In this document: one piece after another, positions 1,983 through 51,001 of the stretch
Layout: each line of letters opens with the position of its first letter
How positions within the stretch are numbered: the stretch's first letter is position 1
Source of the DNA: a virus
Taxonomy: Duplodnaviria; Heunggongvirae; Uroviricota; Caudoviricetes
Reading direction: 5' to 3' (one strand)
Length of the DNA stretch: 64,000 nucleotides
Virus record (IMG/VR): IMGVR_UViG_3300030019_000001
The notes under the pieces: model-generated
Seen by the model: only the letters and a program-made list of their open reading frames with translations
Databases searched by the model: none
Told to the model about the DNA's origin: nothing
Made by a program: the position numbers and the translations under genes

Positions 1983-2597
1983 TCATTCTGGTATTATTCT
2001 AATTTTAGGTCTTTCAGTAGTTTTTGTTATTTTATTTTTTAGTATTTCATCATGTTCGTTAAGCTTAATTAATCCGAATATAGCATAATTAATCATATCA
2101 AAATAATTTGCATCTATACCTTCAGAAATTGTAGTTTTTCCATCATTATCTTCAATTTGTTTAGTTCTATAAATCTTCATTAAAATTAAATCTGTGTATG
2201 ATTCCATTCTCATTGTTCTCCAAGCCTCATCATAATCATGATTTTTATTTAGCATCAATTCTTTAGCATTCTGTATATATTTAGTATATAATTCAATACC
2301 TTTATCATATGATAAATCATCTGAATCAGAATATCCAAGTTCTAATTGAATTAGCCCCATTATACCATAATTCACAATTGCTATTAGCTCAGAATTTATT
2401 CCTTCATCAATTTTTTTATCTAATTTAGTTTCTATACTTCTAATTCGTCTCGCTTTTATGAATATTTGATCTGTGACAGATTTTTGTCTTAAAATTCTCC
2501 AAGATGCGCCATAATCTTTCATTTTCTTCATATAAATATTTGAACAAATACTTATTACATTATCAAATTCCTCAATTGTTTTATTTGTATTACTCAT
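1983..2597 (-). CDS. hypothetical protein with internal tandem-duplicated ~90 aa domain
   Basis: Two repeats: DYGASWRILRQKSVTDQIFIKARRIRSIE and HDYDEAWRTMRMESYTDLILMKIYRTKQIE. Confidence 0.5.
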   Translation of the reverse strand: MSNTNKTIEEFDNVISICSNIYMKKMKDYGASWRILRQKSVTDQIFIKARRIRSIETKLDKKIDEGINSELIAIVNYGIMGLIQLELGYSDSDDLSYDKGIELYTKYIQNAKELMLNKNHDYDEAWRTMRMESYTDLILMKIYRTKQIEDNDGKTTISEGIDANYFDMINYAIFGLIKLNEHDEILKNKITKTTERPKIRIIPE

Positions 2598-3315
2598 TGT
2601 TTTTTAATATGTTATTTAGTTTATCTGCTCTTTTTTCTTTTATCGACAGTTTTTCATTTTCATATAATACTTGTTCAAACTTAAAATTAACTTTCAATTT
2701 GCTTAGACTGCAATAACCGTTTTTGAATTTGAAATTGTTTTCAATTTTTGTGAATTGTAAATTTGTATAGTGTAATGTCAATACATCCGAAATTTCTATT
2801 TTAACAGACATTTTAATTTTATCATTTATCAATTCCATTAATTTTTCATATGGCTGAATTCTATTTCCATCCATTTTACAATCAAATATAAAAGAGTTAT
2901 CAGTTATTTCACATAATGATTTAGATAGTGATCCATCATCTAATTCAAAATCAACAATATAACTCATTGATTCCAATTGATTCAATTCTTCTGATGTTTT
3001 CCACATATTAGATGTAAAACTTCCAATATAATTTCCATTATAATTTCCATTATAAATATTTGAATAATATGGATTAGAACTAACACTAGACGTGTCAATT
3101 GATCCATACATATATGAATTAGATAATCCAATTGATGCACTTGATGTAATTAATGAACTTAATTGACATGTCGCTGTTGCTGTAGTTCCATCTATTGGTG
3201 TTTCAAATTCTGAGAAAGACACTTCTTTTTTGCTGTATTTATCTGATGTAGGTGAAGTTGAAGTATGTGAAAGTTCACCTGGTGAGTTATTTAATAATGT
3301 ATTGAATATAGACAT
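2590..3315 (-). CDS. hypothetical protein (S/T-rich N-terminus)
   Basis: 241 aa ORF with a 4-nt overlap to the downstream gene. Confidence 0.45.
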   Translation of the reverse strand: MSIFNTLLNNSPGELSHTSTSPTSDKYSKKEVSFSEFETPIDGTTATATCQLSSLITSSASIGLSNSYMYGSIDTSSVSSNPYYSNIYNGNYNGNYIGSFTSNMWKTSEELNQLESMSYIVDFELDDGSLSKSLCEITDNSFIFDCKMDGNRIQPYEKLMELINDKIKMSVKIEISDVLTLHYTNLQFTKIENNFKFKNGYCSLSKLKVNFKFEQVLYENEKLSIKEKRADKLNNILKNNE

Positions 3316-9062: not shown

Positions 9063-9314
9063 ATGAAAGCTAAAAATAACGGCAAATGGAATATAGAGAA
9101 TTCAACAGAAATTGATAATATATCATATGAATTGTATCTTATTGAATTTAATGAAAAATATTTAAAAGGTTCTCCATATTTAGATCAAAAAACTTTTCGT
9201 ATGTATTATAAAGATGACGATAAATATTATAAAAATGCAAACAGAAAAATTAGGGCAAAAAAAATAAATCAATTAGAAATAAATAAACTTTCTAATAATT
9301 ATATCATACAATAA
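9063..9314 (+). CDS. hypothetical protein
   Basis: 83 aa ORF. Confidence 0.4.
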   Translation: MKAKNNGKWNIENSTEIDNISYELYLIEFNEKYLKGSPYLDQKTFRMYYKDDDKYYKNANRKIRAKKINQLEINKLSNNYIIQ

Positions 9315-16446: not shown

Positions 16447-17157
16447 ATGTCTAAGATAAAAATAAATAATGAGTGTGCAATAAGAATAAATCACCCAGAA
16501 TTTGGAATTTTTTATTTTTCATATGGTGGACTCACAGAAAAATATAATACGTTTGTATTCACTAAAGATATATCCAAAGTTCAAACTTGGAAGACAGAAA
16601 AATTCTCAGAAAAACAAATAAATATAATCATATCAAAAATGGAATGCAATAAAGGTAAAATATATTTATCTCTTGGTACAAAAAATGAATATGAATATAC
16701 AGATAATATAATACAATCCAGAAAGAAATATTATTATGTTATTGATTCAATTAAAAATGTTAGATCAAAAATAAATTTAATATCCGCAAACAAAAATATA
16801 GAAACTTTAAATATAACACTAATTGAAGATTCAAAAAATATTCAAAATATATATAATAATATCAAGAACAATTTTTTCATAAATAAAATTTATACCCTTA
16901 ATATTTGTGACGATAATTTTGACGATATATTAAATAAATCAAATGAAACACTAACATCACTAAATACATACAATGAGAAACAAACAGATTTGTTATTTAA
17001 AGTGAACAATTACATAGAAGACATTTCGTTATACAAAAAATATAAAAATATAATAGAAGAATCTAATAATTATTATGGATTATATTTAGATATTATTGAT
17101 GCATCTTATGGATTTAGAAGATTGAAATTAAGTACACTTAAGTCATTAAAAGATTAA
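16447..17157 (+). CDS. hypothetical protein
   Basis: 236 aa ORF. Confidence 0.5.
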   Translation: MSKIKINNECAIRINHPEFGIFYFSYGGLTEKYNTFVFTKDISKVQTWKTEKFSEKQINIIISKMECNKGKIYLSLGTKNEYEYTDNIIQSRKKYYYVIDSIKNVRSKINLISANKNIETLNITLIEDSKNIQNIYNNIKNNFFINKIYTLNICDDNFDDILNKSNETLTSLNTYNEKQTDLLFKVNNYIEDISLYKKYKNIIEESNNYYGLYLDIIDASYGFRRLKLSTLKSLKD

Positions 17158-18003: not shown

Positions 18004-18246
18004 ATGATAACATTAGATATAAATATTGGTGTAGGTAATGGAATGAATAAACTTACTATAGATGTAGAATCAATTAAATTATTCAATAGAAAAAAGGTAG
18101 AAATAGAAAATATGATAAGTAGTTATTTTTTTGAATTTGATACAGAAAAAGTCAGAAATGAGATAAGAGAAAATACATATAAAATTCTGAGTACTGATAT
18201 TATAAATATTAGAAGAGATAAACTTAAAAAATTAAATAATATTTAA
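18004..18246 (+). CDS. small protein with RRDKLKKLNNI C-terminal tail
   Basis: Member of the C-terminal-tail family. Confidence 0.4.
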   Translation: MITLDINIGVGNGMNKLTIDVESIKLFNRKKVEIENMISSYFFEFDTEKVRNEIRENTYKILSTDIINIRRDKLKKLNNI

Positions 18247-18264: not shown

Positions 18265-18738
18265 ATGCCATTACAACAGTTTCCAGGAAATCATTATCAT
18301 TATCATTATCATTATAATTTTGATGCTATTTATAAAAGTTTATTTGAAGTTAAATTCAATGATGCATATATGCGTGATAATTGTATTTCTATTAAAAATG
18401 ATATCATGATTTTTAATCTTAATCTTTATGAAGAAGATTTGATTCCTTTCAGTTTTATAAATAATATGATTAGTGAAAATGCTGTATTAGATTATTTAGA
18501 AATATCAAATTTTAAAAAGGATGGTACAATTAATTACATTACATTTTTGAAAAAATTCTCATTCGTTGAATTTGTAGGATTTCTTGATTTTGATTTAGAA
18601 ACTTCAATAAAAGGAGAAGAAATTAAGAAGCTATGCGTAAAATTTAAATATGATAAAATGATTGTTGTCACAGCAAAAAATCATAAGAAATTCATAAGAA
18701 AAATTAAACTTTATAATATAAATAAAAAAGATTCATAA
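18265..18738 (+). CDS. hypothetical protein (HYHYHYHY encoded by a (CATTAT)n microsatellite)
   Basis: 157 aa ORF followed by a hairpin+T terminator at 18724-18755. Confidence 0.5.
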   Translation: MPLQQFPGNHYHYHYHYNFDAIYKSLFEVKFNDAYMRDNCISIKNDIMIFNLNLYEEDLIPFSFINNMISENAVLDYLEISNFKKDGTINYITFLKKFSFVEFVGFLDFDLETSIKGEEIKKLCVKFKYDKMIVVTAKNHKKFIRKIKLYNINKKDS

Positions 18739-18758
18739 ATTATGAATCTTTTTTATTA

Positions 18759-19169
18759 TTACTCCTCATCCAAATTTTCAATATCATCTAAAAATTCAAT
18801 CTCATCTTCATCATCAATATTTATCAATTTTATGTCAGCATGATAATCTACGAAACTTTTCAATTCTTCTATCATATCATAAAAATCAGATTCATCTAAA
18901 CTATCAAGAAGATCAGCTAATTCATTTTTTGATGGTTCATAATCATCTTCATCTTTATAACCTTCTAAACTATTGGCACCTTGATTATCTAATATCTCCA
19001 ATACTTGATCAATAGCATCATGCTTATATTCCCAGTATGATTCAGTTTCGTTATTTACCCTTATTTCCCATTTATTTTCAATGTCATCATTATCTGTATT
19101 TTCTATTTCTTCTTCGTCAAATATATTTTCTTTAATATATTCAAACTCATTAAATTTTTTAAGACTCAT
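18759..19169 (-). CDS. highly acidic hypothetical protein
   Basis: 136 aa, D/E-rich. Confidence 0.5.
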   Translation of the reverse strand: MSLKKFNEFEYIKENIFDEEEIENTDNDDIENKWEIRVNNETESYWEYKHDAIDQVLEILDNQGANSLEGYKDEDDYEPSKNELADLLDSLDESDFYDMIEELKSFVDYHADIKLINIDDEDEIEFLDDIENLDEE

Positions 19170-20822: not shown

Positions 20823-21329
20823 ATGACAACATTTGAAGATACATTTAATGTTTGGATGAACAAAAAAGTAAAACATCAATTAGAAATAATAGACAACATT
20901 TCATCTGAAACTGATATTAATCCTCAAAAATGGTTCACTGAAAATTTCTTACGTAGACAAGTTGATGATTTTACTGGAACTGAATTTGTATCAGTTCTAT
21001 TAGAAAATTATTTATGCTATTTGTCCAATTGTTTTGATAGAATAGTAGGAGATTATTTAGAAAGTACTCATAATAATGTTTATGGTGAGCCAATATTTGA
21101 CATATATATGACATTAGAATATAGCTATGATAAAAATAAACTATTTATCAATGAACAATTTGGAGAAATATCTGATATAGAAAGCGTTATAAAATCAATA
21201 TCTATAGATAATAGATATGAATTAACTAAAAATAAATTATTTTCATATATTATCAATGAAACAAAATTGAATATTTTTTCTAATAAAGAAATAAGAGCAT
21301 TAAAATTGAAATGTTTAAATGAAATATAA
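20823..21329 (+). CDS. hypothetical protein
   Basis: 168 aa ORF. Confidence 0.5.
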   Translation: MTTFEDTFNVWMNKKVKHQLEIIDNISSETDINPQKWFTENFLRRQVDDFTGTEFVSVLLENYLCYLSNCFDRIVGDYLESTHNNVYGEPIFDIYMTLEYSYDKNKLFINEQFGEISDIESVIKSISIDNRYELTKNKLFSYIINETKLNIFSNKEIRALKLKCLNEI

Positions 21330-21543
21330 AGTAGGAGACATTATTTATTTTAAACAAATGTATGATAGTGAATCAATAATATTAGATATTATGATTTATA
21401 CTCACAAAAAACCTCAGTATAAATTTAGATTTCTTGATAATGATGATACACATATCATTACTTATGATTATATAGAAAATCAAACAGAATTGAATATTAA
21501 ATTTATGAGAAAGCAAAAATTGTATAAATTACATGAAATATAA
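21319..21543 (+). CDS. small paralog 1 (MKYKVGDI... / ...RKQKLYKLHEI)
   Basis: Tandem family member with an ATGA stop/start overlap to the next copy. Confidence 0.5.
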   Translation: MKYKVGDIIYFKQMYDSESIILDIMIYTHKKPQYKFRFLDNDDTHIITYDYIENQTELNIKFMRKQKLYKLHEI

Positions 21544-21748
21544 AGCTGGAGATATTGTTATAGGTGATTATTTTAGAATAATGATTTTATCTTATGAATA
21601 TGACGAATATAAATATTGTGTAATAAATTATTTAAATGAAATATCAAAATTTGTACACAACTACAACGCATTAATAATAGACAATGAATCAAAATTAGAT
21701 ATCAAATCTACTAGAAAAGAAAAATTGAAACAATTATATGAAATATAA
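21533..21748 (+). CDS. small paralog 2 (MKYKAGDI... / ...RKEKLKQLYEI)
   Basis: As for paralog 1. Confidence 0.5.
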   Translation: MKYKAGDIVIGDYFRIMILSYEYDEYKYCVINYLNEISKFVHNYNALIIDNESKLDIKSTRKEKLKQLYEI

Positions 21749-21941
21749 AGTTGGTGATATTGTAGACGGAAAGAATAGTAAATTAGTAATATTAAAAATT
21801 TGGGATGGATATTATTATTATGTAGATAATAAAAGTCTGAATTTGTCTAAACGTGTACATTTCGATTATTTAGACTATAATTCTGAATTGGATATTAAAT
21901 CAATGAGAAAACAAAAATTAATAAAATTAAATGAGATATAA
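21738..21941 (+). CDS. small paralog 3 (MKYKVGDI... / ...RKQKLIKLNEI)
   Basis: As for paralog 1. Confidence 0.5.
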   Translation: MKYKVGDIVDGKNSKLVILKIWDGYYYYVDNKSLNLSKRVHFDYLDYNSELDIKSMRKQKLIKLNEI

Positions 21942-22176
21942 AGTTGGAGCTGTTGTTGTTGGTACAAAAGGTATGGTATTTAAAATAGTAATATTAAAAA
22001 TTTTAAATGATAATTATGTATATAGTCATGATATACCAGCAAATAAATCAGTTCATACAGTAAGGAAAAAATCTATTGAATCTAAATATTTAGATGAATA
22101 TTCAGAATTAGATAAACAATATACAAGAAAACAAAAATTAATTCAATTGAATGATACTTCAGCAGTGGTTAAATAA
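21931..22176 (+). CDS. small paralog 4 (MRYKVGAV... / ...RKQKLIQLND...)
   Basis: As for paralog 1. Confidence 0.5.
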   Translation: MRYKVGAVVVGTKGMVFKIVILKILNDNYVYSHDIPANKSVHTVRKKSIESKYLDEYSELDKQYTRKQKLIQLNDTSAVVK

Positions 22177-22729
22177 TCCTGATTTTTTAGAAAAGAATCA
22201 ATTTGATAAAAGAAAAATATTAAAAAGATCCATATTATCTGATAAATATTGCGTAATAGGAAAAACATACATATGTTTTGATAACGAAAACTACTGCTCA
22301 GATATTAGATATTATAATTCATCTAGTCATTGTGATTTAACAATTGGTAAATCATATGAAATATTAGATCATAAAAAAGGCAAAATTAAAATTTTAAATG
22401 ACGGAAATAAAAAAATTTGGAGCACGATAAATAGATTTATGTATTCAATAAAATATGAGAGAAGAGATAAATTAAAAAATATAGTCAAATCATCAGATGA
22501 TATTTTTGTTGATGAGCCAGAAAAAAAATTAATTTGCGTTCTATGTGGACAAGATTGGGGTATTGAGAATAAGTTTACAAATACTTGTGAAAATAATGAA
22601 TGTAATGGATTCTGTACATGGGGCTATTATTCCATGAAACCAGAAAGTTTCACAATTGATGATGACGGCTTTTGGCATTTGATACCTATTCCTAAAGATT
22701 TAAAAGAATTATATAATCCTAAAAAATAA
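22151..22729 (+). CDS. Cys-rich hypothetical protein (putative zinc-binding)
   Basis: CVLCGQDWG...CENNECNGFC. Confidence 0.5.
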   Translation: MILQQWLNNPDFLEKNQFDKRKILKRSILSDKYCVIGKTYICFDNENYCSDIRYYNSSSHCDLTIGKSYEILDHKKGKIKILNDGNKKIWSTINRFMYSIKYERRDKLKNIVKSSDDIFVDEPEKKLICVLCGQDWGIENKFTNTCENNECNGFCTWGYYSMKPESFTIDDDGFWHLIPIPKDLKELYNPKK

Positions 22730-23125: not shown

Positions 23126-23389
23126 ATGAAAATAGATAAAGGTTGGGGCTGCTGGGATTTGATAAATCCAACAAGACTTGATGACATTGCATATTATCTT
23201 TTGGTCCAAGATTATGTGAAAGATTATAAAGATTCTATACCATTTCTACCAAATATGGATTATGAGCCACCTAATCAAAGTTGGATTAATTATAAATATT
23301 TTAGTGAACTCAAATATTCTAAATATTATAATAATGCAAATAATATATTAAGAAAAGAAAAACTAGTTAAATTAAAAGAAATACAATAA
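23126..23389 (+). CDS. small protein with RKEKLVKLKEIQ tail
   Basis: C-terminal-tail family member. Confidence 0.45.
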   Translation: MKIDKGWGCWDLINPTRLDDIAYYLLVQDYVKDYKDSIPFLPNMDYEPPNQSWINYKYFSELKYSKYYNNANNILRKEKLVKLKEIQ

Positions 23390-23393: not shown

Positions 23394-24071
23394 ATGAAAA
23401 AGAAAATAGTAGTATTTACTGGTGCTGGAATAAGTGCAGAAAGCGGAATTCAAACTTTCAGGGATTCTGACGGACTTTGGGAGCAATATGATGTTAAAGA
23501 CGTCGCAACGATTGATGGTTGGAGGAAAGATAGAAAATTGGTATTAAAATTTTACAATGAAAGGCATAAACAATTAGATACAGTAGAACCTAATTCTGCA
23601 CATTACTTTCTTGCTGAATTAGAACAGAAATATGATGTTCAGATAGTGACGCAAAATGTGGACGATTTACATGAGAGAGCAGGCAGTACAAATGTGTTAC
23701 ATCTCCATGGACAATTAACAAAGATGAGAGCATTTAACAATAATACTGTTTATGATTGGCCAAAAGACTTTGATATTCAAACAGATAGTGTAGATGAAAA
23801 TGGTGATACATTACGACCACATATTGTTTGGTTCGGTGAAGATGTACCAAATATGGGTAAAGCTGAAAAATTAACAAAAGAAGCAGATATTCTTATTGTA
23901 ATTGGAACATCATTACAAGTTTATCCTGCAGCAAATTTGTTATATAAAGTAAATTTCAGAACACACACATATTATATTGATCCATCTGATTCTGATGTTG
24001 GTATTGATATTCGAAATTTCACTCATATTAAAGAAACAGCAACAAAAGGAGTCAAAAAATTAAAATTATAA
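23394..24071 (+). CDS. Sir2-family NAD-dependent protein deacylase/sirtuin (CobB-like), lacking the zinc-ribbon cysteines
   Basis: GAGISAESGIQTFRDSDGLW, QNVDDLHERAGS and LHLHG motifs are present. There are no Cys residues where the 4-Cys Zn module normally sits. Confidence 0.8.
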   Translation: MKKKIVVFTGAGISAESGIQTFRDSDGLWEQYDVKDVATIDGWRKDRKLVLKFYNERHKQLDTVEPNSAHYFLAELEQKYDVQIVTQNVDDLHERAGSTNVLHLHGQLTKMRAFNNNTVYDWPKDFDIQTDSVDENGDTLRPHIVWFGEDVPNMGKAEKLTKEADILIVIGTSLQVYPAANLLYKVNFRTHTYYIDPSDSDVGIDIRNFTHIKETATKGVKKLKL

Positions 24072-24412: not shown

Positions 24413-24853
24413 ATGTCAAGTGTTACAGAGAAAATGAGCGAATATTTAGAGTTTTTAAAAACTCCTGAGGGAGAAGAAAGTATTCGTGAATTTAAAGCAA
24501 AATTACAATTAGAAGTAGATATTAAGGATAATAACATTGAAAGAATTAAAAAAATGTTTAATGATCAAGAAACTTTTGATTCTTTAGTTAATAGAATAAT
24601 ATGTAAAAATGGTGATGAATGGAGAGACAAATGCTGGAAAAATGGTTGTATGCCATATCCAACTAATCTATTAAACTCATTATTTGATTTAGCAGAACAA
24701 GAAGGAGTTGAAATTACTGAAACTATTGATGATTTCACAGAACATTTTCAGTCTGATATATGTGAATATAAAGGATGGCAATTTGCTATGACATATGGAC
24801 AAGGAACCTGTGGTAGTATATACTACAATAAAAAATTAATGTATAGAGATTGA
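24413..24853 (+). CDS. hypothetical protein
   Basis: 146 aa ORF. Confidence 0.5.
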   Translation: MSSVTEKMSEYLEFLKTPEGEESIREFKAKLQLEVDIKDNNIERIKKMFNDQETFDSLVNRIICKNGDEWRDKCWKNGCMPYPTNLLNSLFDLAEQEGVEITETIDDFTEHFQSDICEYKGWQFAMTYGQGTCGSIYYNKKLMYRD

Positions 24854-25116
24854 ATTCATTAAAAACAGTAAAATCAAGATATAGTGTATCTAAAATATCA
24901 CCAAATTGTTATAGTAATATTTCAGTAAGTGCGAATACAAATAGTGTTGTTTCTGGTTCAACAGGATCATTAGAACAAGGATATATTTTTGTTCCTTATA
25001 TAATGATGTCTACAACAATATCAGATCTTATAGAATCAAGAGAAAATAAGATCGCAAGATTAAAAGAAGAAAGAATAGAAAAACTCAACAAATTAAAAAA
25101 TATTAAAAATGAATAA
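24850..25116 (+). CDS. hypothetical protein
   Basis: 88 aa ORF with a 4-nt overlap. Confidence 0.4.
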   Translation: MNSLKTVKSRYSVSKISPNCYSNISVSANTNSVVSGSTGSLEQGYIFVPYIMMSTTISDLIESRENKIARLKEERIEKLNKLKNIKNE

Positions 25117-25845: not shown

Positions 25846-26118
25846 ATGAATAACACAAATTATAAAAAAGGAGATAAAGTTATTTGTATTAGAAATGATG
25901 GAGGATATGAAAATTCATTAACAATTGGAGAATCTTATAAAGTTATGTATATTGATAAAATAGATGGTGCTTATCATGTTCAAGTAAAATCAGATGATTT
26001 TGATGAAGGACGAGTTACTGTTTTTTTAAGTAGATTTATATCAACTACTGAATATAAAAAAATTCAAAGAAAAGAAAAATTAGAAAATATAAATAATTTA
26101 TTATCAAATGAATTTTAA
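25846..26118 (+). CDS. small paralog (KKGDKVICIRNDGGYE... / ...RKEKLENINN...)
   Basis: Family with a shared N-terminal beta-rich domain and the C-terminal tail. Confidence 0.5.
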   Translation: MNNTNYKKGDKVICIRNDGGYENSLTIGESYKVMYIDKIDGAYHVQVKSDDFDEGRVTVFLSRFISTTEYKKIQRKEKLENINNLLSNEF

Positions 26119-26362
26119 AAAAAGAGATGAAGTTGTGTGTATTGATAATACAGGAGGATATGAAAAATATTTAACAATTGGTAAAACATATGAAATTTGT
26201 TGTATTTACAAAGGAAAAATAACTAACTTAGATCATTTTAGAATATTATCTGACGCAAAACATGTATTATTTGTAAATCCATTAGGAACAATGTTTTTGT
26301 CACCCAATGAATTTGAAAGAAAAGAAAGAAAAGACAAACTAAATAGATTAAATTTAGTATAA
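26108..26362 (+). CDS. small paralog (KKRDEVVCIDNTGGYE... / ...RKDKLNRLNLV)
   Basis: As for 25846..26118. Confidence 0.5.
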   Translation: MNFKKRDEVVCIDNTGGYEKYLTIGKTYEICCIYKGKITNLDHFRILSDAKHVLFVNPLGTMFLSPNEFERKERKDKLNRLNLV

Positions 26363-26390: not shown

Positions 26391-26612
26391 ATGAAAATTT
26401 TAAGAAAAAAAGACACCTTTAAGAAATTACCTGATGCTAGTATAAATGATGTTGTATCAATAAAATCTTACATTGAACAAGGATGGAAATATTGTTCAAA
26501 AAAAGAATATAAGGATTTTTTCAAATCAGAAACATCTGAGAAATTAGAAGAAAAGACGATTGAGAAATCTGAAATTAAAGAAAAGAAGAAAGAAAAGAAG
26601 CACGGTAAATGA
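26391..26612 (+). CDS. K/E-rich small protein
   Basis: 73 aa ORF. Confidence 0.35.
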   Translation: MKILRKKDTFKKLPDASINDVVSIKSYIEQGWKYCSKKEYKDFFKSETSEKLEEKTIEKSEIKEKKKEKKHGK

Positions 26613-27043
26613 TTTTAGATATAATTAAATATGATGATTTAAACTCAGGAAAATTAAGAAAAATAAACGTGAACGTAAAAAAGGAGAATCCATTTCTACT
26701 TTCCTTAATCAAAAACATGTTTGAAACTCTTAATTATCACAAATTTGAATTTGGATTGTCTGCTCCTCAAGTTGGACACAATTTAAATTTATTTATAATT
26801 GATAATCCTGATTTAAAGGAAGTATTTATTAATCCAGAAATATATCTTGATGGACTTTTTATTCAAAATAAGGAGAGATGTCTAAGTTTACCTAATTTGG
26901 AATTTCCTATTAATAGAAGGTCAATTGTTATGATTAAATATTATGATATAAATTGGAATTATAAATTGTTGACATTAAAAGATTTGAACTCAATAGCTGT
27001 TCAACATCAATTTGATCATATCAATGGTAAATTGATAATATGA
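26609..27043 (+). CDS. peptide deformylase-like protein with HQxDH in place of HExxH
   Basis: Motif 1 is GLSAPQVG, motif 2 is ERCLSLP, and motif 3 is QHQFDHINGKL. The catalytic Glu codon reads CAA (Gln). Confidence 0.7.
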   Translation: MILDIIKYDDLNSGKLRKINVNVKKENPFLLSLIKNMFETLNYHKFEFGLSAPQVGHNLNLFIIDNPDLKEVFINPEIYLDGLFIQNKERCLSLPNLEFPINRRSIVMIKYYDINWNYKLLTLKDLNSIAVQHQFDHINGKLII

Positions 27044-27920: not shown

Positions 27921-28184
27921 ATGAAATCAATTCAATATAAAAAAGGTGAAAAATTTGTTTGCATTGATAATACATCAAAATACACTGGAGCGGAATTAGG
28001 CTACTGCTCTTTAAGATTATTAAAAATTGGTAATATTTATACATTTAATAACATAAATAGTTATGGAGAAATTGCTTTATTTGAAATACCAGGATTTAGT
28101 TTTCGAAAGCAAAGATTTATAAAATATTCTGAATTAAGAAAATTCAAATTGAAAGAATTAAACAATATAAATAAAGAATTATGA
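27921..28184 (+). CDS. small paralog (KKGEKFVCIDN... / ...RKFKLKELNNINKEL)
   Basis: Family member. Confidence 0.45.
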   Translation: MKSIQYKKGEKFVCIDNTSKYTGAELGYCSLRLLKIGNIYTFNNINSYGEIALFEIPGFSFRKQRFIKYSELRKFKLKELNNINKEL

Positions 28185-29026
28185 GTTTAAAAGCATATGA
28201 TGGCATGATGACCAGAAATGGTTTAGCATATATACAAGAAGAAATTTTGAAAAGATTTGATAGATTTGAAGGAGCATCACAAAATGAATTAGCAAAGTGT
28301 TATGCTAGAAATATTATATTACATGTTGATGAAAAATGTAATATTATTCATCAAATGGAATATTCAGCTATCAATGAAATCAATTCAATAAAAAATGAAA
28401 TAAAAAACATCTCAATTGAAGATAACACAACAGTAATTTCTTATTTATTTCAAGCTGGTAACATATTATCAAAAGGACAATACAAAAATGAATTTATGGT
28501 TGATCTTAGTTTATCAATTGATTGTAAAAATGATAAAATATTAGTGTTTCCTAATATTAATGTAGGAGAGCATAGAAAAATTCTTTTAGAATTTCTAACA
28601 GATTGGTATTGTCAAAATCAATGTGATGCAGATGAAAATGTATCAGAAGATGAATGGAACGAAAGAGAAAAAGATTGGTATGCATTTAATAATAATAAAG
28701 GTTTATCAATGAAGATTATGATATTCGATCCAACACATTATTACAATAACTTTAATGAGTATTTCAGAGGAGATATCTTGTATCAAAAGATACTAGAAAA
28801 TATTCCTTCAGACGAAAAAAGAAAAAGAAAAATTGTAACTAACCTTTTAATTTCTGAGAAATCAAAAGGTGATAATGATTATTCGAATGTTTGGAATATA
28901 ATGGGAGAATTAAAAAAAGAAGGTAACACTGAAATTGATGATTATATAAACTCACATGATATTCAATTAGTTAAAATTGATGAAGAATTTATTAAAACAA
29001 AATTATTGAAAAATCCATCTGTTTAA
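28181..29026 (+). CDS. hypothetical protein
   Basis: 281 aa ORF. Confidence 0.5.
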   Translation: MSLKAYDGMMTRNGLAYIQEEILKRFDRFEGASQNELAKCYARNIILHVDEKCNIIHQMEYSAINEINSIKNEIKNISIEDNTTVISYLFQAGNILSKGQYKNEFMVDLSLSIDCKNDKILVFPNINVGEHRKILLEFLTDWYCQNQCDADENVSEDEWNEREKDWYAFNNNKGLSMKIMIFDPTHYYNNFNEYFRGDILYQKILENIPSDEKRKRKIVTNLLISEKSKGDNDYSNVWNIMGELKKEGNTEIDDYINSHDIQLVKIDEEFIKTKLLKNPSV

Positions 29027-29074
29027 GATGGATTTTTATTTTTATATATACATTAAATAAAAATAAATTATTAA

Positions 29075-29401
29075 ATGACAGTATATAGTTTTGGCGAATA
29101 TTATTCAAAGAAAATTCAATTAGATCGATATTATGATAATATGATGAGAGTTGTTGATGATTATGTAAATACAAATGATGAATTTAGAAAAAATCACGGA
29201 TTTCAAAATTCACCTGATTTTATTATAAAATCAGACAGCATATATAAAAGTTCACTTAAACCAGGCGGTTATAAAATATCTTTTGCCTTGAAAAATTATC
29301 AAAAAGGTACAATATCTATAACAGACGAAGAATATAATGATATAGTTGAATATATGAAAGATACAGAATTGTATAAATCTACAAAAAAATTTAATTTATA
29401 A
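29075..29401 (+). CDS. hypothetical protein
   Basis: 108 aa ORF. Confidence 0.45.
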   Translation: MTVYSFGEYYSKKIQLDRYYDNMMRVVDDYVNTNDEFRKNHGFQNSPDFIIKSDSIYKSSLKPGGYKISFALKNYQKGTISITDEEYNDIVEYMKDTELYKSTKKFNL

Positions 29402-30303: not shown

Positions 30304-32187
30304 ATGGAATTATCAGAAATTTATCGATTATTAGAATACGGTATGTTTGAGTCTGCAGCAGTTGAAGTCAAAAAACTAAATAAGAAATATCGTGACGGAG
30401 AACCTGAAATCAGTGATCCTGAATATGATAAAGTAATTTCTACATTTCAAAAATTAGACCCAGATAATGAAATATTTGAATCTGGCGTTATTGAAGATAG
30501 CGAAGATGTCAATCCAGACAGAAAAGAAAATTTAAAATTTCCAATGTATTCATTGGATAAATATCACACAATTGTAGAAATTCACAAATGGTTGAAAAAT
30601 AAAGGGTTACCATTAGAAACAGAATTGGTTTGTACATCAAAATATGATGGTATGTCAATTCTTAAAGATGAATATAAACAACTTGCTTGGTCAAGAGGAA
30701 ATGGCATCACTGGCGAAACTATGCATTTGCACTACAAAAAGTTGAATGATGATAGTAAAAATATTAATTTGTTTACTATTGGAGAAATGATTTTTCCAAA
30801 ACAAGTTTTTAATAGTAGAGTATTTTATAGAGATAATGGTAAGCCATTTAAGAATGCTCGTAATATGATTGCTGGACTTAAAAATTCTGATACTCCATCC
30901 GAAGATTTGAAATTTGCTAAACATATTCGTTATGGTTATGCAAGCGAAGATTTCACTCAAGATAAATCTGAACAATTAGATTTCATCAGTACTAATTTAT
31001 CTAATGTACCATACAAAATATTCAAAGCAAAAGATTTGAATTTTGATGAGCTAAATGATATTTTTATTGAATGGGGTAAAGATTATGATATTGATGGACT
31101 TGTTTTTGATATAAATGACAAAGACATCAGAAAAAAACTTGGTCGTGAAACTAACAATAATCCATCATACGCAAGAGCATATAAGAATCCTGAATGGGCA
31201 GAATCAGCAGAAACAACCATACTTGAAATTGTAAAAGAAGTTTCGAAAAACGGATTACTTAAGCCAGTTGGGCGAATAATTCCAGTGAATATTGATGGTG
31301 CTACAGTATCACGTGTCACCTTAAATAACTATAAATTTGTAAAAAAACATGATTTAGGAGTTGGAAGTATTGTAAAAATAATTCGGTCAGGTTTGGTAAT
31401 ACCAAAGATTGTTCAAATTGTTTCTGCAACTGGATTTGAAATGCCAACTTTTGGTAGTTCAAAAGTTTTCTGGAATGAAAATGAAGTAGAATTAATGGTT
31501 GAAGGAACTGAAGAACAAGAAATTAAGAAATTGATATCTTTCTTTGAAATACTTGAAGCTGATAATGTATCAGAAGGTATTATCAATCAGTTATATAACT
31601 CTGGATATAAGACTGTTAAACAAATATTGGAATTAACACAATCAGAATTAGAATCATTAGATAGATTTGGTGAGAGAAGGGCTGAAATTATATATAATAG
31701 TATTCAATCTTCTATAAAAAATGTCAAATTATCTAAATTAATGCATTCTTCAAATTTCTTTGTGAATCTTGGTAGTAAAAAAATTGAATTACTAATGCAT
31801 TTTGAAGGTAAACCATCACTTGACGAAATTCTATCAATTAAAGGATTCTCAGATAAATCTGCACATGCATATCTTGATGCTTATGATACATTTTATGAAT
31901 GGTTACAAGATAAACCTCAAATAACAATTGAAACAAAAAAAGAAAATATTATTATGGTAACAAACGAATTAGAAAATGTGTCTTTTTGTTTTACTGGAAT
32001 ACGACGAAAAGATTTAGAAGAAATCATAATTTCAAAATCAGGTAAAGTTGCATCTGGTGTATCTAAAAATTTAACATACTTAGTTATGAAAGATAAAAAT
32101 TCTTTATCAAGCAAGGCAGTTAAAGCAGAAGAGATTGGAGTGAAATTGTTAAGTGTTGAAGATTTAGAAAAAATGTTGAACAATTAA
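30304..32187 (+). CDS. ligA: NAD+-dependent DNA ligase
   Basis: Adenylation KxDG motif (TSKYDGMSI), OB fold, HhH region, and a C-terminal BRCT-like segment (FCFTGIRRKDLEEII...TYLVM). Confidence 0.85.
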   Translation: MELSEIYRLLEYGMFESAAVEVKKLNKKYRDGEPEISDPEYDKVISTFQKLDPDNEIFESGVIEDSEDVNPDRKENLKFPMYSLDKYHTIVEIHKWLKNKGLPLETELVCTSKYDGMSILKDEYKQLAWSRGNGITGETMHLHYKKLNDDSKNINLFTIGEMIFPKQVFNSRVFYRDNGKPFKNARNMIAGLKNSDTPSEDLKFAKHIRYGYASEDFTQDKSEQLDFISTNLSNVPYKIFKAKDLNFDELNDIFIEWGKDYDIDGLVFDINDKDIRKKLGRETNNNPSYARAYKNPEWAESAETTILEIVKEVSKNGLLKPVGRIIPVNIDGATVSRVTLNNYKFVKKHDLGVGSIVKIIRSGLVIPKIVQIVSATGFEMPTFGSSKVFWNENEVELMVEGTEEQEIKKLISFFEILEADNVSEGIINQLYNSGYKTVKQILELTQSELESLDRFGERRAEIIYNSIQSSIKNVKLSKLMHSSNFFVNLGSKKIELLMHFEGKPSLDEILSIKGFSDKSAHAYLDAYDTFYEWLQDKPQITIETKKENIIMVTNELENVSFCFTGIRRKDLEEIIISKSGKVASGVSKNLTYLVMKDKNSLSSKAVKAEEIGVKLLSVEDLEKMLNN

Positions 32188-32239: not shown

Positions 32240-32950
32240 ATGACATCATTAGAAGTATATAATATTTTAAGAAATTCAGGAAAATTTCCAAATTTGATTT
32301 TTGGGGAAACAAATTCAAATGTTAGATATTCTTCATTTGCAGAAATAAAATATATTATAAATGAATCAGAATATATTATATCTGTCACTGATGATTATAA
32401 GTTCTCCTTTTTTAACTGTCATCCATTTTCAGATATTAAAGAGTTAGAATTTACTATTATTAATGATTTTTGTGTAGAAAAAAAAATCATATCTAGTTTC
32501 AAAACATTTTTAAAAAAGATTATAAAATTAGATATTTATATACAAAAAAGAGAAATTGATAAAATAGGTATAAAAGATACAATAAATAATTATATTAAAA
32601 AAACATATAATCATTATGATGATTTAAAGTATAATGATTTTTCAGTTAGAGGATTTCATTCTGATTATATAACTATTCAATTTTCATCAAAAAATAGTAT
32701 ATTAAGAATAAATAGCAAAAAAACATATAATGATAAATTATTTGACACATCATTAGAACATTATTCAAGATATAATATTTCAGTATTTTTAAATAATAAT
32801 AATTCAAATATATTATTACAGTTATATTATGATGGAGAGTCAAAAAAATTAGCATTAATTTCAAAAATTGAAACAAACAAGACGTTTAGCAATGATATAA
32901 CTAAAATAATAAGAAAAGAAAAACTTATTAAACTGATGACTGATGACTGA
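32240..32950 (+). CDS. hypothetical protein with IRKEKLIKLMTDD tail
   Basis: 236 aa. A TATCTTTA variant motif sits at 32212. Confidence 0.5.
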   Translation: MTSLEVYNILRNSGKFPNLIFGETNSNVRYSSFAEIKYIINESEYIISVTDDYKFSFFNCHPFSDIKELEFTIINDFCVEKKIISSFKTFLKKIIKLDIYIQKREIDKIGIKDTINNYIKKTYNHYDDLKYNDFSVRGFHSDYITIQFSSKNSILRINSKKTYNDKLFDTSLEHYSRYNISVFLNNNNSNILLQLYYDGESKKLALISKIETNKTFSNDITKIIRKEKLIKLMTDD

Positions 32951-35130: not shown

Positions 35131-35886
35131 ATGCACAAAAATGAATTTAAAAAGTTTGCTACCAAACATTTAGGAATGAGTTCTACATTAGTAGATGATG
35201 CAACAAAATATCAAGCTGAAAATTATGGCTTATCTCCTCATGTTTTAGAAGAACGACAATTGAATGTAACTCAACTATCTGTGTTTGATAGACTTATGAT
35301 GGATAGAATTTTATGGGTGTCTGGTGACGTTGATGATACAATGTCTGATATTATTCAAGCACAATTATTATATTTAGAAGATTCTGATCCTCAAAAGGAC
35401 ATTACAATGCAAATTAATACAGGAGGCGGTAGTGTGACTCATGGGTTAGGAATCATAGATGTTATGAACTATATTAAACCTAATGTAGCCACAGTCAATT
35501 TAGGAATGTGCGCTTCAATGGGTAGTGTACTTCTATCATCTGGAGCAAAAGGTAAGCGTTCATCATTAATTAATTCAACAGTTATGCTACATCACGTTGC
35601 AGCAGGAACTAGTGGCAAAGTAGATGATACTCGTATTAGTCAAATGGAAACTGAAAAATACAATTTTTTACTATTCAAAATTCTTGCTCTTAATACTGAC
35701 AAGTCATTTGAAGAAATTCATGATTTTTGTCAAAGAGATATGTGGTTAAATTCTGATGAAGCTTTGAATTATGGTTTGATAGATAATGTCATTGGATTAG
35801 CTGATAATAAATCCAATTCAATTACAACTATGATGGATGGTTTTGATGAATATTATATGAAATATGTATTTAAACAAGTAAAATAA
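35131..35886 (+). CDS. clpP: ATP-dependent Clp protease proteolytic subunit
   Basis: DRLMMDRILWVSGDVDD...INTGGGSVTHGLGIIDVMNYIKPNVATVNLGMCASMGSVLL (catalytic Ser), MLHHVAAG (His) and the conserved C-terminal region align across the ClpP core. Confidence 0.85.
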   Translation: MHKNEFKKFATKHLGMSSTLVDDATKYQAENYGLSPHVLEERQLNVTQLSVFDRLMMDRILWVSGDVDDTMSDIIQAQLLYLEDSDPQKDITMQINTGGGSVTHGLGIIDVMNYIKPNVATVNLGMCASMGSVLLSSGAKGKRSSLINSTVMLHHVAAGTSGKVDDTRISQMETEKYNFLLFKILALNTDKSFEEIHDFCQRDMWLNSDEALNYGLIDNVIGLADNKSNSITTMMDGFDEYYMKYVFKQVK

Positions 35887-35887: not shown

Positions 35888-36406
35888 ATGACTGAAAATT
35901 TAGATAGCTATTTAGTTGAAAAATATCCTAAAATTTTTGTAAATCGGTATGAAAATATGACCAAGACTGCAATGTGTTGGGGGTTTGAACATGGTGATGG
36001 ATGGTTTTGGTTATTAGATCAACTATGCTATTCTATTCAAAGTTATATAGATACTAATAATAAGTTTTTATCTGATGATGAAAAAATTCCGCAAGTTGTA
36101 GCATCACAAGTAAAAGAAAAATTTGGAATTCTTTGTTTCTATTATTATGGAGGCAATTCACAGATTGATGGTATGATAAGTATGACAGAAAATATGTCTG
36201 GTAGTGTTTGTGAGTTTTGTGGTTCTACTGAAGATATTGGTTCAACAAAAGGTTGGATTTCTATTATATGCAAATCATGCTATGACAATTCAGGAGATAA
36301 TATTAAAAATAGAGTTTGGACTGAACGTAAAAACAATCTTTCATATAGTGATACTATAAAAGAAGTCAGAAAAATTAAACTTGATAAATTAAATAGAGAT
36401 TTATAA
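35888..36406 (+). CDS. Cys-rich hypothetical protein with RKIKLDKLNRDL tail
   Basis: CEFCG...CKSCY, plus the C-terminal tail family. Confidence 0.5.
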   Translation: MTENLDSYLVEKYPKIFVNRYENMTKTAMCWGFEHGDGWFWLLDQLCYSIQSYIDTNNKFLSDDEKIPQVVASQVKEKFGILCFYYYGGNSQIDGMISMTENMSGSVCEFCGSTEDIGSTKGWISIICKSCYDNSGDNIKNRVWTERKNNLSYSDTIKEVRKIKLDKLNRDL

Positions 36407-36433
36407 TAAAAAATATATTAAATAGAGATTTAT

Positions 36434-36470
36434 AAAAAAATAGTTAGATTTTTATCTAACTATTTTTTTA
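36434..36470 (+). terminator. intrinsic terminator
   Basis: atagttagattt-tt-atctaactat followed by ttttttt. Confidence 0.7.
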
Positions 36471-36511: not shown

Positions 36512-37006
36512 ATGGTATATAAAGATTTAATAAATAATATAAAAAGATATGAAGGACAAAAAATAACATTCATAATGGATTCAAATGCTAATAATAAATG
36601 GTTCTTGATGATGATCAAAGAAGATTTATTAAAAATGAAATATAAAATAAAAACTATAAATTATATTAGTAGTTTTGAAAAATTACAAAGTATAACAAAC
36701 CAAATACGTGAAAAAACTGTTATTTTTATTGAGGATATGACAAAATCTATTTTTGATTATTCTTTTGTAGATTCTAATTCAAATTGTACTGTTATTTTTT
36801 TGTGTAAATATTTCAAAAACGATAATTCATTTAATATATTTAACGGCATATCAAACCAAAGATTAATATTTATTTCATCTTTTATAGTTTCAGTAATATC
36901 AGATAAAGTAGCAATAGAAAAATCAAGAGTTGAAAGAATTGATTATGATAATTATTTTTATACCTATACGTCATTAAGAAAATTTAAATTAAAAATTATA
37001 AAATAG
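36512..37006 (+). CDS. hypothetical protein (..LRKFKLKIIK tail)
   Basis: 164 aa ORF. Confidence 0.45.
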   Translation: MVYKDLINNIKRYEGQKITFIMDSNANNKWFLMMIKEDLLKMKYKIKTINYISSFEKLQSITNQIREKTVIFIEDMTKSIFDYSFVDSNSNCTVIFLCKYFKNDNSFNIFNGISNQRLIFISSFIVSVISDKVAIEKSRVERIDYDNYFYTYTSLRKFKLKIIK

Positions 37007-40653: not shown

Positions 40654-40899
40654 ATGACATCAAAAGATATTTACAATAGAATATTATTTATAGAAAATAG
40701 AATATTTGGTTTGAAGTTAAAGGTAAATAGAATATTTGGTTTGGAGTTAAAGGTAAATAGCCACTACATAAGTAACTCTGAATATATAGACACTATAAAT
40801 AGTAGAGCTGAGTTGAACAAGGAATTAACTATTTTAAAAAAAAAATTAAAATTGAATAATATAAGAAAAGAAAAATTACAAAATTTAAATAATATATGA
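40654..40899 (+). CDS. small protein with internal 30-bp tandem duplication and RKEKLQNLNNI tail
   Basis: NRIFGLKLKVNRIFGLELKV is encoded by the direct repeat at 40696-40760. Confidence 0.45.
   Translation: MTSKDIYNRILFIENRIFGLKLKVNRIFGLELKVNSHYISNSEYIDTINSRAELNKELTILKKKLKLNNIRKEKLQNLNNI
40696..40760 (+). repeat. 30-bp direct tandem repeat (2 copies) within a CDS
   Basis: aatagaatatttggtttg(a/g)agttaaaggta x2. Confidence 0.8.
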
Positions 40900-42000: not shown

Positions 42001-42080
42001 GCTCCTATGGTGGAATTGGTATACACGCATCACTTAAGATGATGTCCATTTGGATGAGGTTTCGAATACCTCTAGGAGTA
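42001..42080 (+). tRNA. tRNA-Leu (anticodon UAA), class II
   Basis: Acceptor GCTCCTA/TAGGAGT, 3-bp D stem GTG/CAC, anticodon stem CATCA/TGATG, loop CTTAAGA, variable hairpin TCCATTTGGA, T arm GAGGT-TTCGAAT-ACCTC. Confidence 0.7.
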
Positions 42081-42088
42081 CAAAATAT

Positions 42089-42175
42089 GCCGATGTGATG
42101 GAATCTTGGTAGACATTCAAAACTTAAAATTTTGCAAGCTATATGCTTATACGGGTTCAAGTCCCGTCATCGGTA
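42089..42175 (+). tRNA. tRNA-Leu (anticodon UAA), class II with long variable arm
   Basis: Acceptor GCCGATG/CATCGGT, anticodon stem CAAAA/TTTTG, loop CTTAAAA, T arm ACGGG-TTCAAGT-CCCGT. Confidence 0.6.
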
Positions 42176-42184
42176 CAAAAAATC

Positions 42185-42272
42185 GCTCCTGTGATGGAAT
42201 GGTAGACATCCATGTTTTAGAAACATGTGCTGAACAATAGTAGGCGTGTCGGTTCAAGTCCGACCAGGAGTA
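42185..42272 (+). tRNA. tRNA-Leu (anticodon UAG), class II
   Basis: Acceptor GCTCCTG/CAGGAGT, anticodon stem CATGT/ACATG, loop TTTAGAA, T arm GTCGG-TTCAAGT-CCGAC. Confidence 0.65.
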
Positions 42273-42376
42273 CAATATATTCAATGATTAATCATTATGA
42301 TACAATTTATTTAAAAATATGTTCAATTTTTATTCTTTTTGTCATAGAATTTTTTATATATAAAATAAAAAATAAT

Positions 42377-43475: not shown

Positions 43476-43548
43476 GGCTTGGTATCCCAACGGCAGAGGA
43501 CGGCGTTTCAAATGCGTTTCAGTGAGGGTTCGAATCCCTCTCAAGCTA
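43476..43548 (+). tRNA. tRNA, class I, anticodon uncertain (best fold gives CAA)
   Basis: Acceptor GGCTTGG/TCAAGCT and a clear T arm GAGGG-TTCGAAT-CCCTC. The anticodon stem is weak (GGCGT/GCGTT with G-U pairs). Confidence 0.5.
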
Positions 43549-44091
43549 CACATTAAATTTCTTTGATGCTATAATTGATTTCATATCATTTATATCGCTT
43601 GACCAATATTTCATTGAATCATCATCAGTTTGAACAATTCCTGTGCCATCGTGAGGACCAGGATTCATTTTTTTAACCTTATAATCAATTGAAGCCCATC
43701 TAAAATTTTCAACTCTTTCTTTCTTTATTACTTTACACAATTCCGTATTATCCCAACCAAGCAGACAATAATCTCCAACAGATGGCAGATTTTCCAGATC
43801 TTCAATTTTTTTAGAATAGCTTTTTATTTGTTCACGTTTAACTAAAAAATTATTATTCCACAATTCATATTTATCAAATTTAACGTTATAGTGTTCTGTA
43901 TGTTCATTATATCCAATTATTTTACCTATTCTATATTTATAGTCTGTGTCATTTTCTCTAGGTATAAAATATTCAGGTATTTTAGATTCATAGAAATCTT
44001 CATCAAGTCTAACGTAATCATTTATTTCTGGTTCTGAATCACGTGTAAATTCTTTGGTATCGTAGAATTCGAATTTTTTAATATGTATCAT
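43546..44091 (-). CDS. array A member (MIHIKKFEF... / ...ASKKFNV)
   Basis: 181 aa ORF with a 4-nt overlap to the upstream member. Confidence 0.5.
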   Translation of the reverse strand: MIHIKKFEFYDTKEFTRDSEPEINDYVRLDEDFYESKIPEYFIPRENDTDYKYRIGKIIGYNEHTEHYNVKFDKYELWNNNFLVKREQIKSYSKKIEDLENLPSVGDYCLLGWDNTELCKVIKKERVENFRWASIDYKVKKMNPGPHDGTGIVQTDDDSMKYWSSDINDMKSIIASKKFNV

Positions 44092-50377: not shown

Positions 50378-50412
50378 AAAAATAGCAGATTAACAATCTG
50401 CTATTTTTTTAT
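50376..50412. terminator. bidirectional intrinsic terminator
   Basis: aaaaaa-atagcagatt-aaca-atctgctat-ttttttt. Confidence 0.8.
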
Positions 50413-50999: not shown

Positions 51000-51001
51000 G
51001 T

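Follow-up and report, generated by a model that had tools for sequence, protein, structure and literature searches.

A basic helical C-terminal tail on unrelated small proteins of AT-rich megaphages, possibly a docking module for one shared partner

Short conserved peptides on otherwise unrelated proteins are known from several systems. The cargo-loading peptides of encapsulins are short, C-terminal, found on unrelated cargo, and dock inside an HK97-fold shell; MIM1 of ESCRT-III binds the MIT domain of Vps4; and the SspB XB peptide, the ssrA tag and the MuA C-terminus serve the Clp system as C-terminal tethers or degrons. In phage T4 the capsid targeting sequence (CTS) MKTYQEFIAE, found on IPI-III and Alt, is an address peptide and the sole common part of diverse, fast-evolving accessory proteins (PMC3012670, PMC8442874). 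Here we describe a C-terminal tail of about 15 residues carried by numerous small proteins in a 64-kb stretch of DNA (64,000 nucleotides, hereinafter the window) of IMG/VR virus record IMGVR_UViG_3300030019_000001 (Caudoviricetes), and in related phages. A full-text literature search for tail strings returned no published description of the motif, and to our knowledge the tail has been undescribed so far.

The most compact occurrence is a run of four consecutive genes at 21319-22176, which the original prediction took for paralogs. Pairwise identities of 29-49% (E 1e-6 to 4e-14) confirm this, and every copy carries R-K-(Q/E)-K-L-x-x-L near its end. The copies lie on the plus strand at 21319-21543 (74 amino acids (aa), MKYKVGDII...; tail IKFMRKQKLYKLHEI, Arg codon at 21508), 21533-21748 (71 aa; IKSTRKEKLKQLYEI, Arg codon at 21713), 21738-21941 (67 aa; IKSMRKQKLIKLNEI, Arg codon at 21906) and 21931-22176 (81 aa; TRKQKLIQLNDTSAVVK, Arg codon at 22126). 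The MKYKVGDIV start and EI end that had been ascribed to all four do not extend to the last copy, which begins with MRYKVGAVV and ends with ...LNDTSAVVK. Neighbouring genes do overlap at stop and start, as had been noticed, but by 11 nucleotides (nt; ATGAAATATAA) and not by a 4-nt ATGA. Within this overlap the final x-E-I shares bases with M-K-Y-K of the next gene, and it is because of this dual coding that the junctions are identical at the DNA level, over 11 nt only; the R-K-x-K-L-x-x-L core lies upstream of it.

In the window as a whole, the pattern R-[KRA]-x-K-[LI]-x-x-[LI] matches 20 times in 111 genes, against a mean of 0.30 and a maximum of 3 in 2000 residue shuffles (about 70-fold enrichment), and 19 of the 20 matches fall within the last 22 residues (P = 1.6e-16). 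A position-specific scoring matrix (PSSM), trained on the tails of other contigs only and applied to all six frames of the window with a cut-off of 14 bits, gave 17 matches at or above the cut-off, all of them in real open reading frames (ORFs), 16 being C-terminal and one internal; a mid-protein control gave 0 matches. Altogether 21 tailed ORFs (20 terminal, one internal) were found among about 112 window genes, i.e., in about one gene in five, which is an unbiased tail frequency. In 20 of the 21 ORFs the motif is separated from the stop by 0-11 residues; over all tails collected in this work the distance from the motif end to the stop is 1-14 residues (mode 3-5), and the C-terminus itself is variable. 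The motif is by no means internal as often as terminal, internal copies amounting to one of 21 in the window and 16 of 224 overall.

Ten further ORFs had been proposed to end with the tail, and all ten do so. On the plus strand they encode an 80-aa protein (18004-18246; tail NIRRDKLKKLNNI, Arg codon at 18211), an 87-aa family C protein (23126-23389; ILRKEKLVKLKEIQ, 23351), three family B proteins, namely an SH3-like one of 90 aa (25846-26118; IQRKEKLENINNLLSNEF, 26068), one of 84 aa (26108-26362; ERKDKLNRLNLV, 26327) and one of 87 aa (27921-28184; LRKFKLKELNNINKEL, 28137), a 236-aa protein (32240-32950; IIRKEKLIKLMTDD, 32912), a 172-aa zinc-ribbon protein of the form GDGW...KEKFG...CxxCG, which starts two bases after the ClpP gene (35888-36406; VRKIKLDKLNRDL, 36368), a 164-aa protein (36512-37006; LRKFKLKIIK, 36977) and an 81-aa protein (40654-40899; NIRKEKLQNLNNI, 40864); the tenth, of 64 aa, is on the minus strand (47492-47686; LRKIKLKKLESNK, 47530). 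A ClpX-like zinc finger, discerned in the protein at 35888 by eye alone, has no Pfam support and is not claimed. Six terminal copies were added to these: a 241-aa protein on the minus strand (2590-3315; KEKRADKLNNILKNNE, 2631) and, on the plus strand, an 83-aa family C paralog of 23126 with a degenerate tail (9063-9314; IRAKKINQLEINKL..., 9252), a 236-aa protein with a weak tail, followed by a convergent gene (16447-17157; FRRLKLSTLKSLKD, 17116), a 157-aa protein that closes its operon, with a hairpin and a convergent gene after it (18265-18738; FIRKIKLYNINKKDS, 18697), a 168-aa protein of unrelated body that opens its operon, with TATCTTTG at 20788 upstream of the start (20823-21329; EIRALKLKCLNEI, 21294), and an 88-aa product of a TTG-started ORF whose variant tail LKEERIEKLNKLKNIKNE (RIEKLNKLKNI) was detected by the PSSM only, at 23.3 bits (24850-25116; 25072). 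The tails at 2590, 16447 and 36512 match the pattern and lie below the PSSM cut-off. The single internal copy, YERRDKLKNIV (Arg codon at 22460), joins an SH3-like body to a Cys-rich domain in a 192-aa fusion protein (22151-22729, plus strand), and this architecture is retained in its orthologs.

The consensus of the tail is [IL]-K-x-[ILY]-R-K-x-K-L-x-K-[LI]-N-x-[IL] (an example is SELDIKSMRKQKLIKLNEI), and its net charge is about +3.6 over 15 residues, compared with +0.7 for the final 18 residues of other proteins. Conservation follows a 100-degree period; drawn as a helical wheel, the tail has its invariant Arg, Lys, two Leu and Asn on one face, together with the aliphatic residues at positions -4, -1 and +10, and its variable positions opposite. 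The AlphaFold2 (AF2) model of the 25846-26118 product, built on a profile of 86 sequences, has a predicted local distance difference test (pLDDT) value of 86.8 and consists of a small beta-barrel (residues 11-66) and a predicted helix (67-89) that contains the tail; successive 10-residue blocks across residues 61-90 have pLDDT 92, 93 and 80. The model of the family A protein 21738-21941 is of low confidence (62.7), and its usable part is only the helix 50-66, within which the tail lies. Foldseek matched the 25846 barrel to MRG15/MSL3 chromo-barrels, the 53BP1 Tudor domain and SH3 with probability 1.0, the E value being only 0.014 and the TM score 0.55. At the level of fold, the bodies of families A and B, the four array genes included, are thus modelled as members of the SH3/Tudor/chromo-barrel class of small five-stranded beta-barrels.

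The carriers are diverse. From the window's relatives (see below) 208 distinct tailed proteins were collected, with a median length of 85 aa (range 44 to 277 aa), whose bodies form 110 clusters without mutual BLAST similarity; the idea of a portable basic-amphipathic C-terminal peptide on diverse small proteins, put forward in the original prediction, is therefore upheld, the bodies being unrelated in sequence. On non-SH3 bodies, residues that do not belong to the search pattern are enriched as well: K at +6 (83/153), N at +8 (79/153), I/L at -1 (79/153) and K at -3 (57/153), and likewise positions -4 and +10. Searches with 20 tailed proteins of the window and the 10 longest from related loci against Pfam and PHROGs gave no match above threshold and no recognisable enzymatic or structural domain, the only weak matches, Phage_ProQ_C_like (E 0.063) and phrog_4927 (6e-5), falling on the barrel.

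Roughly one carrier in four is an SH3/Tudor-like beta-barrel from a fast-changing tandem array, and it could be argued that all carriers descend from a single SH3-plus-helix ancestor, forming one fast-diverging superfamily in which the helix is merely the best-conserved structural element. Families A, B and several others do share an N-terminal K-x-G-D-x-V strand and the barrel, and phage ORFans are known to diverge past BLAST detection. Still, 153 of the 208 carriers have no SH3-like N-terminus and the lengths are as scattered as given above; the barrel also occurs in tandem repeats without the helix. In an exhaustive profile search for the barrel family, which yielded 7186 cluster representatives, the tail was present on 164 of 170 small single-domain matches versus three of 48 longer or multi-repeat ones, all three being short two-domain proteins. 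The body of the 35888 product belongs to a separate zinc-ribbon family, whose homologs in the huge phages LR756500, LR756508 and LR756511 end without the tail. Common descent of all the carriers is accordingly highly improbable in our estimation. Since both the barrel and the zinc-ribbon family exist elsewhere without it, the tail is an add-on: a separable helical module, C-terminal or rarely placed between domains, on more than a hundred unrelated small proteins. A higher identity of tails than of bodies between orthologs (66% vs 51%) was not used here, as the comparison is circular, both members having been selected by the motif.

In one tailed family of 190-206 aa (L053 13676-14287, L041 3750-4328, L097 1933-2553) an extra internal tail-like helix, RQKLKQDRLNKLRKL, was observed. 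The same family gave a sub-threshold match to the N-terminal portion of the model of T4 Gp23, the major capsid protein (VQPLSSPSPQLFY; 19.9 bits vs a cut-off of 24.4), which was not confirmed by PDB sequences and was dropped as evidence. The MKYKVGD array varies in size, with four copies in the window, a single copy in the GROS21 phage and three copies on one IMG/VR contig (L007 7472-7696, L089 3357-3991), and SH3-like arrays of a related locus (L059) reach about ten copies in succession; such differences in copy number between related phages indicate rapid gene birth and death.

One rival reading is that what is conserved is a nucleic-acid signal, acting as promoter, in translation initiation or coupling, or in recombination, or else the outcome of gene conversion, the peptide being its by-product. 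The last 11 nt of the array genes, dual-coded with the next start and identical in DNA, would fit such a signal, as would the extension ...L-C-S-N-Q-E-I-K of related arrays, which is M-F-K-P-G-D-K-V of the next gene read out of frame. Dual coding, however, affects only residues past the core; the core module alone is autonomous, and the ...LCSNQEIK extension is a dual-coding product. The main Leu of the window tails is encoded by TTA (7), TTG (5), CTT (4) and CTA (3), roughly in background proportions, and of the 208 tails from related contigs 196 have Leu here, encoded by all six codons, CTN as well as TTR, at close to background proportions; the conserved Arg, Lys, Leu and Asn codons of the 208 tails follow genomic background usage in the same way, and the variable positions vary with a three-base period. 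The similarity is therefore not confined to the DNA junction, synonymous sites showing no conservation. Some tails overlap the next start by as much as 26 nt, others lie up to 105 nt away from it, and three tails close operons (at 18738, 17157 and 36406), with a hairpin or a convergent gene next. The pattern matches in the other five frames are just four, all in tiny ORFs. Neither the nucleotide-level conservation nor the fixed spacing to the next start expected of a promoter, a ribosome-binding site or a coupling element was found, so that a nucleic-acid signal has a practically negligible probability; selection on the tail acts at the level of protein and not of DNA. Nascent-peptide pausing and termination-reinitiation are ruled out too, because tails are also found at the ends of operons.

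The distribution of the tail among phages is narrow. The window (24% G+C, about 111 densely packed genes) is a fragment of a huge-phage genome, since identical-sequence copies of its proteins were found by protein search on a contig of 711,471 bp and the closest deposited relatives of its NAD-dependent DNA ligase (30304-32187) and ClpP (35131-35886; Pfam 1.7e-54), at 40-53% identity, belong to 630-640-kb uncultured 'Mahaphage' genomes and Prevotella Lak megaphages. A syntenic phage with about 60% protein identity has the tail on every ortholog and additional tailed genes besides, and in a more distant 65-kb contig 34 of 63 genes are tailed. A DNA pattern for R-K-E-K-L-x-x-L-N found 88 stretches in IMG/VR; among the first 80, which were examined, 51 have at least two C-terminal tails, all 51 at 20-27% G+C, and the densest one has 27 tails in 15 kb. 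Conversely, tails are carried by none of 90 genes in the equally AT-rich LR756500 (23.5% GC), none of 153 in Mahaphage LR756502, two of 147 in Mahaphage LR745206 and none of 80 in Lak-C1, and none of the 106 DNA-pattern matches in 185,579 bacterial and archaeal genomes has more than one terminal copy or is clustered. As these phages are at or near zero and the prokaryotic matches are unclustered, the tail is specific to one clade of AT-rich megaphages and is not an effect of base composition. A tblastn search of 50,697 GenBank phages with a consensus-like SH3-plus-tail protein and with the 32240 and 20823 products gave nothing useful; single-protein word-index searches matched almost only the same phage, and a profile search was required.

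Considering the invariance of a single helix face on unrelated carriers, we regard the tail as a docking helix for one shared, clade-specific partner, a reading to which we give about an even chance, the partner itself being hypothetical. The conserved face, with invariant Arg, Lys and Asn among four or five aliphatic residues, would insert into an acidic-hydrophobic site on this partner, and a large variable set of mostly early small proteins would in this way be brought to the same machine or place. What the data do show is that, within a single clade of AT-rich megaphages, the module was joined in the course of evolution to well over a hundred mutually unrelated small proteins without an assigned function. 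A single partner is suggested because the same residues are kept on one face across unrelated carriers, which neither dimerisation nor electrostatic anchoring would need; and since the motif is clade-specific and close relatives lack it, the partner is most likely encoded by the phage or specific to the host lineage.

Both of those other uses of an amphipathic basic helix deserve weighing against these data. Many small phage proteins act as oligomers, and tails could associate with one another in a short coiled coil or a bundle of helices, giving dimers, tetramers, mixed complexes or a condensate; aliphatic residues recur at every third position (-4, -1, 4, 7, 10), and some proteins have two tail-like helices (e.g., L053 13676-14287 and L085 3465-3977). 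The oligomerisation zipper suggested in the original prediction finds no match in the sequence, however, as the best heptad register reaches an a/d hydrophobic occupancy of just 0.48, the module of about 15 residues falls short of the three to four heptads or more of a leucine zipper or coiled coil, and the hydropathy periodicity peaks at 130 degrees versus roughly 103 for a heptad. Furthermore, the apolar stripe contains the invariant Arg and Lys, the charge of about +3.6 would be repulsive in a homomer, and homodimer motifs are free to diverge, yet the same residues are fixed over 110 body clusters. Self-association is hence rather doubtful.

The same charge, high compared with that of other C-termini, would suit a helix that binds DNA, RNA or acidic lipids non-specifically and anchors its carriers on the nucleoid, ribosome or membrane, the more so as SH3/Tudor/chromo-barrel folds are often nucleic-acid binders. 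Electrostatics, though, does not call for Arg, Lys, two Leu and Asn to be invariant at fixed spacing, with five or six near-invariant positions across the 110 body clusters. Unlike in membrane helices of the MinD/FtsA type, the apolar stripe is broken by charged residues, Arg (0 degrees) and Lys (300) lying inside the apolar arc of 260-40, and equally AT-rich relatives manage without the tail. We find polyanion binding improbable.

Turning back to docking, several points weigh against it. It is argued from sequence and predicted models, with a shared partner that is hypothetical; the predicted helix 67-89 may project from the barrel or pack on it, and in the SH3-like carriers it could be partly structural, chromo-barrel domains having a C-terminal helix of their own. 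The loci of the large sample were picked for containing the motif, which biases the frequency of 208/960 upwards, and the classification of promoters, considered below, is heuristic. A nuclear-localisation signal (K-K/R-x-K/R) was ruled out separately, as the genome is that of a phage (a T4 gp9/10-like baseplate protein, peptide deformylase, overlapping operons, bacterial-type promoters).

The genomic surroundings of the tailed genes bear on when and where they act. The motif TAnnTTTG, which is the Bacteroides -7 promoter consensus (PMC4747536), stands in seven intergenic regions about 30-60 nt upstream of same-strand genes: as TATCTTTG on the plus strand at 20788, 30262, 35086, 38291, 39698 and 62647, and as TATATTTG upstream of 27727. 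Its total in the window is not above chance (9 vs 6.5 expected), and six of the nine are intergenic and correctly oriented; the genes behind it include the ligase, ClpP (site at 35086) and the first gene of the tail array. These sites suggest a Bacteroidota host and early transcription by the host RNA polymerase. The tailed genes are found chiefly on the plus strand from 20.8 to 41 kb, in operons with a TAnnTTTG site at their head, along with the sirtuin (SIR2 protein, 23394-24071) and peptide deformylase (26609-27043), both named from annotated orthologs, the ligase and ClpP.

A second peptide label marks another set of proteins. Sixteen ORFs of the window end exactly with [NK]-K-[FY]-N-[ILVM], as do 83 of 960 ORFs in related loci, and most of the 16 start with MK[YHK][IL]KxFE (e.g., MKYLKTFE) or MKKYNQFINE, the latter identical to the T4 sequence MKTYQEFIAE at six of 10 positions. 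They lie at 29075-29401(+), 43546-46129(-), 46740-46934(-), 50409-53443(-), 53811-54152(-), 54625-55209(-) and 55280-56361(+), mostly in minus-strand arrays around the gene of the T4 gp9/10-like baseplate protein (48566-50377). Seven of the 16 are in operons with TATATATA-type upstream motifs, and TAnnTTTG operons hold none of them, as opposed to 11 of the 20 tailed genes. Each label excludes the other: the tail is found on 0 of 67 proteins with a CTS-like N-terminus, and none of the window genes with the CTS-like pattern (44088-45665 and others) is tailed. The motif TTATATATA is over-represented in the window (30 vs 12.6 expected, with 0 of 100 shuffles reaching 30) and is mostly intergenic, upstream of baseplate-region, K-F-N-family and AAA+ genes (e.g., at 741, 3364, 8279, 29042, 47031, 47084, 47776, 48072, 54172, 55239, 59436, 60894 and 61860); it is a candidate for a late promoter and recalls the late promoter of T4, TATAAATA. 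The proteins with the second label are likely capsid-internal or late.

This arrangement bears directly on the packaging signal that had been among the functions first considered, by which the tail would target proteins to the prohead in the manner of the T4 CTS or encapsulin cargo peptides. The internal proteins of T4, diverse and with only the targeting peptide in common, are a precedent (PMC3012670), and promoters of late type are seen with a few tailed genes (2590, 18004, 40654). But most tailed genes are in host-promoter operons with the ligase, sirtuin, deformylase and ClpP; it is the other, T4-like label, with its CTS-like start and K-F-N-[IL] end, that marks arrays adjoining baseplate genes, exclusively of the tail; and one gene in five would make a very large cargo list. 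Nor does the tail have the features of a T4-type CTS, which is N-terminal, M-K-x-Y-x-x-F-I-x-E, with an L/I-x-E protease site. Packaging is, on this evidence, very unlikely.

The docking reading may be extended to both labels, which would then sort the accessory proteome: the tail helix would plug over a hundred fast-evolving and mainly early small binders into one phage-encoded hub, such as an unfoldase/protease or the replication compartment, where their variable bodies would deliver different host targets, as a modular adaptor system with which the phage remodels its host, and the late proteins would be those with a T4-like N-terminal capsid-targeting peptide and the K-F-N-[IL] C-terminus. 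We consider this extended form speculative and rather unlikely to hold as a whole.

One machine to which the tail had specifically been assigned, as a degron or adaptor tag, is the co-encoded ClpP with a Clp-ATPase. The tail could set the moment at which the phage ClpP system removes early proteins, or tether binders with their host targets on a Clp unfoldase. ClpP is indeed present, behind a TAnnTTTG site in the same block as many tailed genes, with the tailed 35888 directly after it; a related 248-kb contig (GCA_043956695.1; L101 1-3763) has, close to four tailed genes, the genes of ClpS and of a ClpA/B-like ATPase of 827 aa; and SspB/ClpX adaptors are built from a variable binder and a constant tail. 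Nevertheless, ClpP is encoded by Mahaphage and Lak genomes as well, whose sampled regions have no or almost no tails, and the window contains no Clp ATPase, its two AAA+ proteins matching only generic AAA and AAA_5/AAA_3 models and no Clp family of Pfam. The 'Clp-ATPase' of the original prediction probably stems from the trio at 56391-60872(-), where a DUF2201 metallopeptidase/VWA-like protein is followed by these two AAA_5/AAA_3-type proteins in a MoxR-VWA-like order. Finally, unlike in degrons of the ssrA/MuA type, where the element occupies the extreme C-terminus with its free carboxylate, the motif stops 1-14 residues short of a C-terminus that varies, and some copies are internal. A Clp role for the tail, which has no specific support, is in our judgement unlikely.

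Other features of the window were recorded in passing. Hairpins with a T-run, recognised by eye, follow immediately upon the operon-final genes 18265-18738, 28181-29026 and 35888-36406 (at 18739-18760, 29027-29060 and 36420-36460, respectively) and are probably intrinsic terminators between transcription units. Four tRNA-Leu genes (anticodons UAA twice, UAG and CAA; 42001-42273 and 43476-43549) surround an ORF for a homing-endonuclease-like protein of 396 aa with HTH (helix-turn-helix) and LAGLIDADG_3 domains (42284-43474). A 367-aa protein (797-1900) combines a partial match to glycosyl hydrolase family 15 (5e-15) with TPR repeats, a pairing unusual for a phage gene, and an S1-domain protein is also encoded.

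Huge phages have genes without known function by the hundreds. About a fifth of the window's genes, and over half of those in certain stretches of related contigs, are linked by one short peptide, and many such orphan genes are reduced to one testable question, that of the binding partner of the helix. The motif provides a handle for pull-downs, reporter fusions and structure-prediction screens, as well as a simple metagenome marker of this uncultivated megaphage clade, and finding its receptor would lead to a central step of infection. Seen alongside the second label, the motif suggests that giant phages may make far wider use of the peptide-based sorting known from the internal proteins of T4.

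Among described families and systems, DUF6501, Phage_ProQ_C_like and SH3_15, the weak Pfam matches, have the barrel in common with the bodies of families A and B; small SH3/Tudor protein families of this kind are defined by the barrel, of which the tail is not a part, and it is missing in the multi-repeat versions. The peptides of the Clp system are likewise short, in some cases basic-hydrophobic, placed on unrelated proteins and read by one machine, and this phage encodes ClpP; however, the SspB XB peptide, the ssrA tag and the MuA C-terminus have no sequence likeness to the tail, which keeps no fixed distance to the C-terminus. Encapsulin cargo peptides are Gly/Ser/Leu-rich and extended, whereas the tail appears as a basic helix, and nothing ties its carriers to a capsid. 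MIM1 of ESCRT-III, although unrelated in sequence and organism, is the closest analogy, and an analogy only, for the presumed mode of action, since it is helical, amphipathic and terminal, keeps a few invariant Leu and Arg/Lys on one face and is read by a dedicated domain. Conceptually the closest system is the T4 CTS, also a short conserved peptide that is the only common feature of diverse phage accessory proteins; it lies at the N-terminus, is about 10 residues long and neutral or acidic, undergoes cleavage by the prohead protease and occurs on late virion proteins, whereas the tail is C-terminal, different in sequence, basic, predicted to be helical and encoded mostly in operons of early type.

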